Source: an uncultured Gammaproteobacteria bacterium (GTDB taxonomy: Bacteria > Patescibacteriota > Patescibacteriia > Magasanikbacterales > UBA922). From it: a DNA stretch of 64,000 bases. The DNA is taken from positions 28,110 to 92,109 of the forward strand of contig CAYUTO010000001.1 of NCBI GenBank assembly GCA_964447765.1. The letters run 5' to 3'. Numbering within the stretch: the stretch's first letter is position 1; each line of letters opens with the position of its first letter. The notes below the pieces were generated by a model, which worked only from the letters and a program-made list of their open reading frames with translations, did not search any database and was not told the origin of the DNA. Below are positions 5,956-61,687 of this stretch, piece by piece. A program made the position numbers and the translations under genes.

Positions 5956-6213
5956 TTAGAAGCCTGCGTCGCTTAGAAACTTCGCAGTCTCTGCGGTATC
6001 GAGAGGTTGGTCGGTGTCCTCCGTGTTGTGTTGGTTGGTTCTCGCGGAAGGTGTAGTCGAGTCTATCTTGAGGATCTTGTTATCCTTGTAGCGGTTCCAG
6101 GACCATTCTTGAGTTAGTACCACGATGAGGATGATGAGGACGAATCCACCTATGATACAAGCAGTCATTGTGATTTCTCTCTCGGATGTGACGGTTAGAG
6201 AGGTGTGCCACAA
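5956..6213 (-). CDS. Hypothetical small single-TM protein, GC-rich cassette B, convergent with cassette A
   Basis: ORF of 85 aa (70 aa from an internal Met) with one hydrophobic helix (ACIIGGFVLIILIVVL) and an acidic tail. A short hairpin AGGCTTagaAGCCT follows the stop. Confidence 0.35.
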   Translation of the reverse strand: MWHTSLTVTSEREITMTACIIGGFVLIILIVVLTQEWSWNRYKDNKILKIDSTTPSARTNQHNTEDTDQPLDTAETAKFLSDAGF

Positions 6214-6302
6214 AAACTAATTATAGACCGATTACTTATCTTGTCAATTAATTTACAGGTAATCTTGAAAGTTTGTGAACAATACTGTACGCTCAGGTAA
6301 GT

Positions 6303-10367: not shown

Positions 10368-11144
10368 ATGCCTGAAGAGAAAAGCATATTTGATGCGCTT
10401 TCACCTAAACAAATGTTTGTTACCGGACTCGTTGGGGGGATCATGGTGCTGTGTACTATTGGTTTTTTTGTAGTACTAAGTATCATGCTTGGTGATGGTG
10501 TTTCTACGAAGACTCCTCGAACACCAGGCACGGTCGTGACTGATGCAAGTGGTAATGTAGAAGGGCCAGAAGAATTTAGTCAGTGTCTTGATTCTGGAAA
10601 AACAGCGAGTGCTGTTTCTGCTGATCTTCAGCTCGGAAGTTCAATCGGGGTGAATGGAACTCCTGCAACTTTTGTAAATGGAGTATTGGTAAGTGGGGCA
10701 TTTCCATACGACTCATTGAAACAGGTGATCGATGCGACACTTGCAGGTCAATCAGTTGATAATCTTGAATTTTTGAAAGACCAAGAAACTGGAAAAGTAA
10801 TAAAAGTGACTATACCTGAATTGCCAGGTGCAGTATGGCTTGGAAATGAGAATGCAAAAGTCACTGTGGTAGAGTTTTCTGATTTTGAATGTCCATATTG
10901 TCTCAGATTTGAACCTGCAGTCAAACAGATGCTTACTGAATACGGAGACAAGATTAGATTTACCTACCGACATTTCCCATTATCATTCCATCCAAATGCA
11001 CAAAAAGCTGCAGAAGCATTTGAATGTGCTAAAGAACAAGGAATGGCGTGGGAGATGCACGAGAAACTGTTTGGGCTTCAGTCATCAGGACAACTTGGAA
11101 TTAATGGCTACAAGCGCGTAGCAACAGAACTCGGACTTGATTAA
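10368..11144 (+). CDS. Membrane-anchored DsbA-like thiol:disulfide oxidoreductase, apparently circularly permuted
   Basis: N-terminal TM helix. Residues ~60-130 match the C-terminal part of a DsbA/BdbD domain (EEFSQCLDSGK...GVNGTPATFVNG). The C-terminal half matches the N-terminal part, including the CPYC active site, and ends ...ATELGLD. Confidence 0.6.
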   Translation: MPEEKSIFDALSPKQMFVTGLVGGIMVLCTIGFFVVLSIMLGDGVSTKTPRTPGTVVTDASGNVEGPEEFSQCLDSGKTASAVSADLQLGSSIGVNGTPATFVNGVLVSGAFPYDSLKQVIDATLAGQSVDNLEFLKDQETGKVIKVTIPELPGAVWLGNENAKVTVVEFSDFECPYCLRFEPAVKQMLTEYGDKIRFTYRHFPLSFHPNAQKAAEAFECAKEQGMAWEMHEKLFGLQSSGQLGINGYKRVATELGLD

Positions 11145-11386
11145 GCAGGTTTACACGAATAACCCTTCGAAAACTCTCAAGATCAATCTCGTACAAATTT
11201 ACGAGTAGGGTATTAATTACTTTCGGGATCCCAGGTGTACCTGCATACCTAAAAAGTACGCAGACTGAAAAAAGTTCACCGCAAAACTGCCGGGCCAAAC
11301 ACGGCGGTTTTTGTTTTAAATACTGATTGAACTTAGGGATTACATGGATAATTTAGTTAAAATAAGTCAAATATTACCTTAAATGG

Positions 11387-11440
11387 TTGACAAATTACCC
11401 ACGCCATGCTAAACTTTTTTATCACTAATTTTAGTGATAA
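11387..11440 (+). promoter_or_regulatory. Consensus sigma-70 promoter (TTGACA-17 nt-TAAACT) followed by a perfect 10-2-10 palindrome TTATCACTAA-tt-TTAGTGATAA (operator-like) upstream of cassette C
   Basis: Read directly from the sequence; the palindrome spans 11419-11440, about 25 bp before the GTG start. Confidence 0.5.
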
Positions 11441-11466
11441 TGCGTTTCTTAGGGTAGGAGGAGAAC

Positions 11467-11931
11467 GTGGATACTTTTGATGTTACGGTAAATTACGACC
11501 TTCCGTTCAAGGAGGCAATCTCGGTCGGGAAGTATGATTGGGTGGATCAGAACATTACCTTAAAGAACTTCGCCTGGACTACTGGTTGGACTGCTAAATT
11601 CAAACTCTACCTCGTCAGCTTCGGTTATCCTGTAACGACTGCAAAGATCGAGGAATTGAGCGCTGAATTTCGTCTGGCTGCGCTTCCTGAACTTCTCGCC
11701 TTCGGAGCACAGTTCCCAGACAGGCAACGCGAGTTCGCGATCGTCGCTCTCGGTTCGCCTTGGGCTGTTCCTAATGGCAGTCATCGTGTCACATGTCTCT
11801 ATGGGGACACGGCTGTAAGGAATCTTGGTCTTTACTGGGATGCTCCCGAAAATAAGTGGGAAGGGTGCTGTAAGTTCCTGATGCTACGTAAGTGGGAGTA
11901 CTCTGCACAAAAAGCTTTACAAAGAAGGTGA
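11467..11931 (+). CDS. Hypothetical protein, GC-rich cassette C
   Basis: GTG start after TAGGAGGAG; 154 aa; about 50% GC. A GC-rich hairpin terminator lies at about 11943-11990. Confidence 0.5.
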   Translation: MDTFDVTVNYDLPFKEAISVGKYDWVDQNITLKNFAWTTGWTAKFKLYLVSFGYPVTTAKIEELSAEFRLAALPELLAFGAQFPDRQREFAIVALGSPWAVPNGSHRVTCLYGDTAVRNLGLYWDAPENKWEGCCKFLMLRKWEYSAQKALQRR

Positions 11932-12030
11932 GCGGCCAATCGAGTGCCCTGTACTAGTTCTATAGTGCAGGGCCTTTCTTTTTATTGAAAATTAGCTATA
12001 CTTGAATGGATACAATATTTATATATTTTT

Positions 12031-18784: not shown

Positions 18785-19476
18785 AATATTTCGAAATGAA
18801 TATTTTTTGCGTCAGTTCCTCGAGTAGTGAGCATTTCTCGAACTGTTTTTACCATATCAGCATTTCCGCAGAGAAATGCATGGAGATGTGAAGTGTTTGT
18901 AGGTAGGTGTTCGGTCACGCGTCCTCGACTTCCAGTCCACGAGTCTTCGGGGCGTGAAATAGTGGTCGAGTAGCTAAAGTTTGTATGTTTTTTTTGTAGT
19001 TCTTCCAATCGGTCTGCCCAGAAAATATCTTTTTCGTATCGAACTCCAAAAATAAGGTGTAATTTGTTTTTATTATTTTTACTCTCCAGTTCATCTTGGA
19101 TCATTCCCATGATTGGAGCTAATCCTACGCCTGTGGCTATAAAACAGAGATCGCTGTTGCTAGTGTTTACGACAAACCTTCCTGCTGGTCCGCGGAATGA
19201 AATTGTGTCACCTGGGTTTGAAATTTGAAAAAGTTTGGAAGCAATACCGGTATCATAGAGTTTCACGCATAGTTCTAGATACTCGTCTTTTGGAACAGAG
19301 GAAATGGAATATGAACGAAATACTTGTTTTTCACCCTGTGGCGCAATAATTTGGATAAATTGACCAGCCTGAAAATCAAAGTTTTTTGGCTTATTTAAGC
19401 GAATTTGAAGCACATCTTCGGTTAGATATTTCTTTTCTATTAGATTGCTTTGGAATTCATTCATAACGATTGACAA
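18781..19476 (-). CDS. FAD/NAD(P)-binding oxidoreductase, ferredoxin-NADP reductase family
   Basis: FAD-binding RSYSIS motif, GxGxxP-type NAD motif (ATGVGLAP) and C-terminal FLCG. Confidence 0.7.
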   Translation of the reverse strand: MSIVMNEFQSNLIEKKYLTEDVLQIRLNKPKNFDFQAGQFIQIIAPQGEKQVFRSYSISSVPKDEYLELCVKLYDTGIASKLFQISNPGDTISFRGPAGRFVVNTSNSDLCFIATGVGLAPIMGMIQDELESKNNKNKLHLIFGVRYEKDIFWADRLEELQKKHTNFSYSTTISRPEDSWTGSRGRVTEHLPTNTSHLHAFLCGNADMVKTVREMLTTRGTDAKNIHFEIF

Positions 19477-19531
19477 TCGAGATTAATTCGTATATCATAC
19501 TACAAAAGTATGATTTCTGCAATAATACCCT

Positions 19532-19927
19532 ATGCTTTCGATTAGTAAACAAACTGACTATGCGGTGGAGCTCATCTTGGCGCTTTCAAAGTTGAAAGAA
19601 AGTGAACTTTTGAGTCTACGCGTCTTTTCTAAACAAAGTACCATATCATTCTTGTTTTTACAACGGATTGCCAAGTCTTTGCGTGAGGCGAGACTGATTG
19701 AAGCTGTTCGTGGAATTAATGGGGGATATCGACTATTGAAACCTGCATCAACTATTTCGTTTCGAGAAGTGATTGAGGCAGTGCAAGGACCATTTTCCGT
19801 ACTTGCATGTACCAAGAGAGAAAAGTGTGAGCTTGAGGCTATGTGCACGGCAAAGCATGGACTTCGATCTGTCGAGACTGAAATTGCGGAGCTTCTTGGT
19901 TCACGATTTGTGGTATCTCAAAATTAA
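19532..19927 (+). CDS. iscR: Rrf2-family transcriptional regulator (IscR-like)
   Basis: Rrf2 HTH at the N-terminus and three clustered Cys residues (CTKREKCELEAMC). Confidence 0.75.
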   Translation: MLSISKQTDYAVELILALSKLKESELLSLRVFSKQSTISFLFLQRIAKSLREARLIEAVRGINGGYRLLKPASTISFREVIEAVQGPFSVLACTKREKCELEAMCTAKHGLRSVETEIAELLGSRFVVSQN

Positions 19928-37396: not shown

Positions 37397-37978
37397 TTAT
37401 ATATATTGTCTTACTACACCAGTCACCACTCCCCCAACCTTCAATTCGTATTTTGGAAATATGTCCGGGTATTTTTTGTTTGCTGCACGGAGAAACATTT
37501 TTTTGCCTTTTTGCATGAGGAATTTCAGTGTCCACTCATGATCAATTTCTGCAACTACGACTGCTCCTGGTTTTGCAGTCTTTTTTCTGTTTACGATGAC
37601 CATATCCCCTGACATGATCCCTGCACCTTGCATAGAGTCACCTGAGACCTTTAGAAGGAAGGTGTGTGTGGGCTCGTGAATGAGTAAGTCATTGAGTGAT
37701 ATACAGTCGAGTAGACTTTCCTCAGCGTCGTGTGGAATTCCCGCACGGACTTCTCCTAGTACTCTCACTCCATAGAGTTTTGGAGTAGCAATGAGAAATC
37801 CTTCATCACTCTTTCGTACAACATCATCCTCGATAAACTTTTCAATATAGTCGAATGCTGCTGATTTTGACTTCACCCCAAAGACCTTGGTCATTTCTTC
37901 GTAGGTTGGAAGCCGTTTGTTTTTGTTGTAGTAGGAAAGCAAAGCTTGCATCCTTTTTTTATATAGATCGAGGGGCAT
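37397..37978 (-). CDS. lexA: LexA repressor (S24 peptidase)
   Basis: N-terminal winged HTH, cleavage-site region, and the catalytic Ser in SGDSM. Confidence 0.85.
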   Translation of the reverse strand: MPLDLYKKRMQALLSYYNKNKRLPTYEEMTKVFGVKSKSAAFDYIEKFIEDDVVRKSDEGFLIATPKLYGVRVLGEVRAGIPHDAEESLLDCISLNDLLIHEPTHTFLLKVSGDSMQGAGIMSGDMVIVNRKKTAKPGAVVVAEIDHEWTLKFLMQKGKKMFLRAANKKYPDIFPKYELKVGGVVTGVVRQYI

Positions 37979-38046: not shown

Positions 38047-38059
38047 CGAACGTTTGTTC
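38047..38059. promoter_or_regulatory. LexA operator, Cheo-box type: CGAACGTTTGTTC
   Basis: Matches the Gram-positive SOS box CGAAC-N4-GTTC; about 70 bp upstream of the lexA start. Confidence 0.7.
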
Positions 38060-38081
38060 TCCTCCTTGAATACAAGTATAC

Positions 38082-38095
38082 CGAACGTACGTTCG
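38082..38095. promoter_or_regulatory. LexA operator, Cheo-box type, perfect palindrome CGAACGTACGTTCG
   Basis: Perfect CGAAC-N4-GTTCG; a second box 35 bp from the first. Confidence 0.75.
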
Positions 38096-38258
38096 GGTGT
38101 AAAGTGTGGTTAGGGGGATGTGTGTGGATAACTAGATTTTGTACGAAGTTTTGTGTCGAATGATTCACTTGATACGAATTTTTCATATAGAGTGAATCAT
38201 TCGCGACTGAACTGCATTGGTTATGCAGACAGTCGCGATAGAGTATGAGCGAGAGGGA

Positions 38259-61033: not shown

Positions 61034-61165
61034 AGGAGGATATTTAGGTTAAATTAGCGAAATAAGCGGAGTAAGACGAGCTCTTCAATCCAAGCAACTT
61101 TGGAGCTATAAGTATATACGGTTTCATGTATATAGAGTAACAGATTGCGTGCATAGAGGCAATAT

Positions 61166-61195
61166 TGACAAAAAGCCTTTCATAAGGTATATTTT
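61166..61195 (+). promoter_or_regulatory. Consensus promoter TTGACA-17 nt-TATATT upstream of cassette G
   Basis: Read directly from the sequence. Confidence 0.45.
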
Positions 61196-61252
61196 TTGGT
61201 CAGGTTTTGCAGCACTGGCACAGTTCTTTTCTCGGCTGCATGAGAGTGTCTA

Positions 61253-61606
61253 ATGAAGATTCGTATCAAGAGAGATCCTCGGAACCCGGGTGAAGGTGAA
61301 ATCACTGCTGCGTTTCTGCTCGCGCAGAGGCCGGGCAGTTTCTTTCTCCCGTTCGTGATGGAGGACGGCACAGTGATCGAGCTCAGCGTGGACGAGCTCA
61401 GCTACGAGTCAGGTCAGTCTGGTATGTTCATCCTGGGTGGTCGGATCAAGGGCGGTCCCCGGTACGCCGGTTTCTATAACGCCGCGAATCATGGACCTGG
61501 CTACCCTGACACCGAGCAGGTCAACCTCTTCGGCCAGCCGCGCGAGAAGGTGTTCGGACCGATAACGACCGTCGATGAGGGTACGCTCGGCGCTCGCCCG
61601 CGGTAG
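61253..61606 (+). CDS. Hypothetical protein, GC-rich cassette G (about 60% GC)
   Basis: 117-aa Gly/Pro-rich ORF, followed by a perfect 13-bp stem terminator GTTCGCACCCATC...GATGGGTGCGAAC at 61617-61659. Confidence 0.45.
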   Translation: MKIRIKRDPRNPGEGEITAAFLLAQRPGSFFLPFVMEDGTVIELSVDELSYESGQSGMFILGGRIKGGPRYAGFYNAANHGPGYPDTEQVNLFGQPREKVFGPITTVDEGTLGARPR

Positions 61607-61687
61607 ACACTACACTGTTCGCACCCATCTTTCGCAGAACGCGATTGATGGGTGCGAACGTTTCAATTCCTTACCAAGGGAATTTTT

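Follow-up and report, generated by a model that had tools for sequence, protein, structure and literature searches.

Promoters overlapped by a dyad-symmetric operator are familiar from Cro/C1-type switches (XRE family, Pfam HTH_26), such as the lambda OR/OL sites with their CI and Cro repressors, and from lacO1 with LacI and the SOS boxes with LexA, where the start site of a sigma-70 promoter close to consensus lies within a palindrome and an unlinked gene supplies the regulator. A palindrome at such a position may also be read as RNA, and its described counterparts are then the 5′ stabilizer stem-loops of the ompA, ermC, and aprE leaders. Here we analyze a perfect 22-bp palindrome in a 64,000-nucleotide stretch of contig CAYUTO010000001.1 (hereafter the window, in whose coordinates positions are given unless another locus is named), from a Magasanikbacterales genome of the candidate phyla radiation (CPR; Patescibacteria). 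The palindrome lies between the promoter and the Shine-Dalgarno (SD) sequence of a gene for a 154-residue protein, which is related to the targets of diversity-generating retroelements (DGRs) such as Mtd of Bordetella phage BPP-1 and TvpA of Treponema denticola.

The window site shares with the Cro/C1 switches its dyad symmetry and its overlap with the core promoter, and with lambda in particular its outer arms, TATCAC and GTGATA, which match the CI/Cro half-site (consensus TATCACCGC); with the HTH_26 elements of Clostridia it shares an identical 9-2-9 core, which there lies beside HTH_26 genes. It differs in being single, whereas Cro/C1 operators come as two or three tandem sites, and in having no adjacent divergent repressor gene; furthermore, the Clostridial sites occupy the promoter spacer rather than the region downstream of the −10, and the lambda site spans 17 bp (TATCAC-N5-GTGATA) rather than 20–22 bp (TATCAC-N8-GTGATA). 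The likeness to lacO1 and the SOS boxes lies in the position over the start site and in a regulator that would be encoded elsewhere, although the window's own LexA uses CGAAC-N4-GTTCG boxes and not this palindrome. As in the stabilizer leaders, the short leader of the predicted transcript starts with a hairpin, and a strong SD sequence follows, but the weak stem consists wholly of A-U pairs, the underlying DNA palindrome is perfect, and the start site is predicted from the −10. Finally, the gene product resembles the DGR targets in its C-type-lectin fold and C-terminal hypervariable segment, and its homologues have an adjacent template repeat (TR) with 95% adenine-specific mismatches, bAvd, and reverse transcriptase, whereas none of these three accompanies the window copy within 64 kb, and its N-terminal extension and conserved leader RNA are missing.

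Our first-ranked but tentative reading is that the palindrome serves as DNA operator for a dimeric repressor of the Cro/C1 type (XRE/HTH_26-like), the gene for which would lie outside the window or have been lost. A repressor bound across approximately −2 to +20 would stop open-complex formation or promoter escape at a promoter that should otherwise be strong, having an extended −10. We rank this reading first because the same 20-mer is operator-like elsewhere, because the outer arms correspond to the lambda half-site, and because the symmetry of the DNA reaches upstream of the probable transcription start. The palindrome would in this case control what appears to be a self-contained expression cassette (11387–11983), inserted between a DsbA-like gene and translin in this strain only.

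The anatomy of the cassette is given in Table 1. An earlier note on this stretch, made from the sequence alone, described a textbook promoter overlapped by the palindrome; the promoter elements and their 17-nt spacing are where it placed them, but "textbook" is an overstatement, as the match is 10/12 and the −10 hexamer, at only 4/6, is rescued by its TGn extension; by score alone, the window has 30 promoter matches this good or better, where chance would give 27.6. Its account of the rest of the leader was accurate: the palindrome follows the −10 within 4 bp, the two being separated by 3 nt (ttt), and covers the predicted start, which we infer from the −10 to be A11421 or A11424, and the SD sequence, GTG start, and open reading frame (ORF) of 154 codons are all present. 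The symmetry reaches 2–5 bp upstream of the likely start, which would be superfluous for an element acting as RNA only. The sequence recurs without a difference over 12.4 kb in an independent Logan assembly (L001).

The non-random part of the arrangement is the occurrence of promoter, palindrome, strong SD sequence, and ORF together in one intergenic stretch. Allowing up to three mismatches, the palindrome pattern occurs once in the window, against 0.01 occurrences expected. Seven places have a perfect inverted repeat whose arms are 10 nt or longer and whose gap is 8 nt or shorter, against 0.8 in Markov shuffles of the window; five of these are bidirectional terminators consisting of A-run, GC core, and T-run, one lies in coding sequence, and the palindrome is the sole long perfect inverted repeat at a promoter. 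A rough estimate derived from the shuffle counts gives p ∼0.01–0.03 for a chance palindrome within 30 nt of a promoter.

Table 1. Coordinates of features in and around the cassette, of the two regulator genes in the window, and of leader elements in homologous loci.
Feature	Position	Strand	Sequence and basis
−35 hexamer	11387–11392	+	TTGACA; sequence, promoter scan
Extended −10	11407–11415	+	TGc + TAAACT, the latter at 11410–11415; 17-nt spacer to −35
Palindrome, candidate operator	11419–11440	no strand	TTATCACTAA-tt-TTAGTGATAA; perfect 10-2-10
SD sequence	11455–11463	+	TAGGAGGAG; sequence
GTG-start ORF, 154 residues	11467–11931	+	
Equivalent of DGR variable region, residues 96–142 (GSPW...CKFLMLRK)	11752–11892	+	family alignment; variable region/TR pairs of homologues map here
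Cassette terminator	11946–11983	+	hairpin GCCCTGTACTA-gttcta-TAGTGCAGGGC at 11946–11973, then T-run
Conserved post-DsbA element ending in intrinsic terminator	11227–11317	+	alignments with five relatives; native left flank of slot
Surviving native slot/translin promoter	11975–12002	+	TTTCTT, 16 nt, TATACT; alignment with relatives; right edge of insertion
Rrf2-family regulator gene	19532–19927		upstream of Fe-S assembly genes
LexA-like S24 peptidase gene	37397–37978		
R1 leader element, examples	L127:2730–2773; L101:2730–2773; L083:552–595; L120:277–320		

The evidence that the sequence can serve as an operator comes from other genomes. The pattern TATCACTAA-NN-TTAGTGATA, with 18 specified bases, was scanned in 185,579 species genomes and found at 68 loci, the window's own genome not being among the matches; a pattern with 16 specified bases gave 83 matches in a viral collection. 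At six Clostridial mobile-element loci (L018, L050 with two copies, L056, L067, L069, and L074) the 20-mer fills the 17-nt spacer between a −35 TTGATT and a −10 TATAAT. A further site of similar sequence lies ∼13 nt upstream of it, and ∼100 bp away is a divergent gene for a ∼70-residue Cro/C1-type HTH_26 protein. The window palindrome and this Clostridial operator class have the 9-2-9 core ATCACTAA-N2-TTAGTGAT in common, and nature thus employs the same 20-mer as an operator-like site, acting at the level of DNA, in a switch resembling that of lambda. Tandem sites are also present at orthologous positions in Flavobacterium genomes, and three TATCACTA-type sites stand in tandem on phage contig L225; viral-contig matches to the 16-base core are mostly single and chance-like, with neighboring copies in 1 of 80. 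A Peribacteria locus (L075) sharing both CCATGCTAAAC and the palindrome was considered as a homologous promoter and rejected, as it lies inside a coding region and the resemblance is therefore coincidental. The palindrome strings themselves had no match in a literature search.

A related observation concerns Bacteroidota, where TATCACTAAATTTAGTGATA recurs at orthologous intergenic positions in Flavobacterium and relatives, often with an adjacent half-site or second site. Two sets of loci were found (L012, L013, L023, L048, L061, and L062; and L026, L031, L035, L054, L063, and L072), one set lying beside a gene for a NarL/LuxR-type response regulator and the other between ubiE/menG and a membrane-protein gene. 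This sequence is probably a conserved Bacteroidota binding site for a putative regulator.

A number of results weigh against an operator. The totals of 68 and 83 matches are near the rough chance expectation, with only subsets demonstrably functional. Within the window, half-sites occurring singly show no enrichment (9, with 7.3 expected), and ∼0.8 palindromes of this kind per window are expected by chance in intergenic DNA of 31% GC. A search for further copies, which the earlier note had proposed for the genome, was negative in the window and in ∼70 kb of relatives' loci, with no second site at up to four mismatches. The window also has no HTH_26 homologue (the best tblastn hits, E 0.12–0.15, fall inside unrelated ORFs), and inspection of its 30 small or unknown ORFs yielded no helix-turn-helix protein besides Rrf2 and LexA, whose boxes, ATCATACT-n5-AGTATGAT and CGAAC-n4-GTTCG, differ from the palindrome; the earlier statement that no regulator is encoded nearby is borne out to this extent. 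Moreover, the site is single and downstream of the −10 where the Clostridial sites are paired and in the spacer, and it would also fold as a 5′ hairpin. The suggestion that the gene is tightly repressed is thus only partly upheld: the elements are laid out as in a repressible promoter, and the 20-bp core of the palindrome is operator-like elsewhere, but the second site and the HTH_26 homologue are missing from the window. Such an architecture is unremarkable in promoters of the repressible or leader-hairpin kind, and the operator reading is plausible but unproven.

The hairpin provides one of two alternatives that we regard as possible, though doubtful. The first 18–20 nt of the mRNA, from approximately A11421, could form a 5′-terminal stem-loop of 7–9 bp that would shield the foreign message from 5′-end-dependent decay (RNase J/E/Y, pyrophosphohydrolase) or modulate translation; such an element needs neither a regulator nor a second site. 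The AU-rich hairpin has a predicted energy of −7.9 kcal/mol when the whole 22-mer is folded and −6.3 kcal/mol when the RNA begins at A11421, it sits at the extreme 5′ end of a leader of only ∼45 nt, and the leader as a whole is predicted to fold better than its shuffles (z −2.7). Structured RNA leaders occur in most homologues of the gene, making leader structure a theme of the family. However, this hairpin is unrelated to the conserved leader of the family, the covariance model of which (R1, described below) has no match in the window, and the identical sequence is found elsewhere in promoter spacers that are not transcribed. The stem is weak and wholly A-U rich; in the DNA the two arms match perfectly, no pair being G-U, and their symmetry reaches beyond the likely start on the upstream side. 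To a similar degree we entertain the possibility that the palindrome has no present function, being either a relic operator from a donor mobile element, with the repressor absent and the promoter constitutive, or a chance palindrome in AT-rich DNA. The cassette is specific to this strain and foreign in composition, no cognate regulator was found in the window and no second site there or in the relatives' loci, and both the number of such palindromes expected per window and the match counts across the collection are consistent with chance. A relic would have come with the gene, which is unlikely because the segment comprising promoter, palindrome, and SD sequence is host-like at 31% GC rather than donor-like, whereas the ORF has 49% GC. 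In addition, the 10+10 symmetry is perfect and without decay, and its joint placement with the promoter has the low chance probability estimated above.

Two further explanations have little to recommend them. The earlier note had allowed that the palindrome might be purely a terminator of the upstream DsbA transcript, and an inverted repeat 3′ of a gene is what such a terminator would be. This scenario has almost no probability and is ruled out by the sequence alone: the AU-rich stem is without a G-C-rich core, TGCGTTTCTT comes after it in place of a T-run, the terminator scan did not call it, and the palindrome is located 3′ of the −10. The DsbA gene already has a conserved terminator ∼100 nt upstream of the palindrome (11287–11317), with a G-C stem (11287–11292/11302–11307) and T-run TTTTTGTTTT (11308–11317). 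It is also improbable, although somewhat less so, that the palindrome serves recombination or DGR retrohoming as a DNA site, being either the core site, with 8-6-8 layout, of a tyrosine recombinase that delivered the cassette or a cis element of a remote DGR. In favor, the slot is a hotspot that holds different genes among relatives, and the gene comes from a DGR target family. Against both, the window contains no recombinase, reverse transcriptase, Avd, or template repeat, no matching site lies at the other end of the cassette, and the palindrome is absent from the slot genes of relatives. The known DGR cis elements, the initiation of mutagenic homing (IMH) sequence and a hairpin, sit at the 3′ end of the variable region (VR) and not upstream of the gene, which counts against a DGR site in particular.

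The two regulators that the window does encode bear on the operator reading by comparison. Over the promoter of the Rrf2 gene (TTGACA, 17 nt, TATCAT) lies the inverted repeat ATCATACT-acaaa-AGTATGAT (19470–19520), which is probably the autoregulatory operator of that gene. The same genome uses a layout of promoter plus palindrome for a real regulator, and we count this in favor of an operator at 11419–11440. The palindrome itself is rejected as an Rrf2 operator because the Rrf2 repeat has another half-site and spacing. Upstream of the LexA-like gene, which is on the − strand, lie two Cheo-type SOS boxes (38047–38098), CGAACGTTTGTTC and CGAACGTACGTTCG, which suggests that this CPR genome has a canonical LexA motif of the Gram-positive type; the boxes are unrelated to the palindrome, which is therefore rejected as an SOS box.

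The 154-residue protein, called unrecognised in the earlier note, can be placed in a family. Searches of Pfam, PHROGs, NCBIfam, PADLOC, and PDB sequences returned no match, nor did tblastn against phages and plasmids; IMG/VR contained one relative only, and a BFVD structure search was uninformative. A word-indexed search identified 15 relatives at 35–45% identity, and the profile built from them retrieved 7,541 cluster representatives (50% identity), some with two or three tandem copies of the domain; no protein in the databases lies between 45% and 100% identity to the window protein. A fold search matched C-type-lectin/FGE-type domains, including TvpA (PDB id: 2Y3C), and the family alignment shows a hypervariable stretch of 45 C-terminal residues on a fixed scaffold. 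Repeats were sought in 80 metagenomic homologue loci encoding proteins 37–45% identical to that of the window. At 18 of the 80, a copy of 121–146 nt of the 3′ end of the gene lies ∼350 nt downstream at 80–89% identity, and 351 of the 371 mismatches between VR and TR at these loci (95%) fall at adenines of the downstream copy. Such adenine-specific mismatches are the signature of mutagenic retrohoming by DGRs, indicating that the family consists of DGR variable proteins, and at L127 and L100, the two loci examined for this, genes for bAvd and an RVT_1 reverse transcriptase come after the repeat. A template repeat is nearby in only 17 of the 59 loci with enough flanking DNA; orphan or remote members are common in the family. 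Some loci carry tandem paralogous variable-protein genes (L004:8001–9681, L002:6001–7221, and L125:1384–2777), and in the L004 pair, which is located in a defense island with type I restriction-modification and CBASS, each copy has its own promoter and leader.

By family alignment, the window gene is an orphan member, consisting of the core domain, of this DGR variable-protein family and a predicted ligand binder of C-type-lectin fold. The segment 11145–12030 has no repeat anywhere in the window, which likewise contains no YxDD ORF of at least 150 residues and no Avd. The copy retains every family-invariant residue. It is without the usual N-terminal extension of 50–70 residues, has a two-codon insertion in the segment equivalent to the VR, reads KFLMLRK in place of the family's RFAAVRK in the IMH-region motif, and continues for 11 codons past the usual ...VRK stop to give an 11-residue C-terminal extension. 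DGRs with C-type-lectin targets are abundant in CPR lineages (PMC8144416, PMC11661182). It is conceivable, but unlikely, that a DGR elsewhere in this small CPR genome still acts on the cassette as its remote target and that the palindrome is the operator of a dedicated switch silencing a hypervariable ligand-binding protein until it is needed. If so, a DGR-diversified receptor would be gated at the level of transcription by an unlinked repressor, replacing the structured RNA leader of most members. Membership as an orphan in a very large DGR variable-protein family that has no Pfam entry explains the odd composition of the gene, and raises the question whether it is still hypermutated in trans. 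Regulation in CPR bacteria is almost unexplored experimentally, and a candidate promoter-operator pair on a recently acquired gene, with a defined operator sequence and a named candidate class of regulator (Cro/C1 HTH_26), offers a tractable handle.

By its named translin homologues, the organism belongs to Patescibacteria and probably to Magasanikbacteria. The origin of the cassette was addressed by comparing the slot between the DsbA-like and translin genes in five relatives, probably Magasanikbacteria as well, with translin 82–90% identical (L157, L159, L161, L163, and L164). The gene order dnaG-rpoD-sodA-DsbA-[X]-translin-murE-GT2-fmt is kept, with X being an 87-residue membrane protein (L157 and L161), a NUDIX hydrolase (L159), a 100-residue ORF (L163), or a 133-residue ORF (L164); the 154-residue gene is in none of the five. 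The slot genes of relatives stand behind a conserved promoter, cTTGCTT, 16 nt, attagcTATACT (−10 TATACT). The native slot promoter in the window comes directly after the cassette hairpin, now facing translin, and its degraded −35 is overlapped by the T-run of the cassette terminator. Because the relatives' slots hold other genes, and because this native promoter survives on the right and a conserved terminator on the left, we conclude from the alignments that the unit 11387–11983 is a strain-specific, horizontally acquired insertion into a hotspot slot. The composition of the ORF is foreign as well, with a GC content at third codon positions of 0.50, against 0.27–0.34 in neighboring genes.

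The post-DsbA element on the left flank has the form GATCCCAGGTGTA-[variable hairpin or none]-AACAGTTCACCGCAAAACYGCCGGGCCAAACACGGCGGTTTTTGTTT in relatives, the hairpin being inserted in one loop. Its terminator half is 100% identical across relatives and conserved beyond the flanking coding DNA, and the element could be a small RNA derived from the 3′ untranslated region or a regulatory element. A 75-nt insertion separates it from the stop codon of the DsbA-like gene in the window; in L159 (2510–2609) the same stretch is exactly 100 N, representing a scaffold gap or masking. The possibility that the DsbA-like gene is a pseudogene broken by the insertion was rejected, as its relatives have the same length of 257–270 residues.

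The leaders of homologous genes revealed an RNA element that may be of wider interest than the palindrome. A structured element of ∼45 nt (R1) lies just upstream of the SD sequence in 31 of the 80 homologue loci (L077–L156), consisting of a P1 helix, a GGGG/(U/C)GAG internal loop, and a variable P2 hairpin. The P1 helices are 92–95% paired, with compensatory changes, while the register of P2 in the model is imperfect. In 400 kb, the covariance model has matches only upstream of these genes, all of them on the coding strand. Rfam 15 gave no match for the homologue leaders, and Rfam gave none for the window or, at E up to 10, for the region 11130–11480. R1 is a candidate for a new RNA that regulates DGR target genes in cis; it covaries and is present upstream of many of them. 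At many loci (L120, L142, L102, L156, L112, L117, L082, L126, L151, L087, L089, L079, and L101) a second hairpin, NNNN-CAGCYTTTAG...CTAAAAGCTG-NNNN, lies upstream of R1 and 60–110 nt upstream of the gene. Loci L002, L004, and L005 instead have CAGCCCCTTTAAA and a different long hairpin, GAGACGAGCGCC...GCGCGCTCGTCTC; the latter was rejected as a family-wide leader, being found in 0 of 80 further loci.

Two other GC-rich orphan ORFs with strong promoters were observed in the window, neither with a palindrome like that at 11419–11440; they probably correspond to other cassettes in the lettering of the earlier note, where the present one is cassette C. One encodes 117 residues (61253–61606, within 61165–61660 on the + strand, local GC 0.48) behind TTGACA, 17 nt, TATATT, and the other a small membrane protein (∼5990–6250 on the − strand) behind a perfect TTGACA, 16 nt, TATAAT at 6247. 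Both are probably horizontally acquired cassettes.

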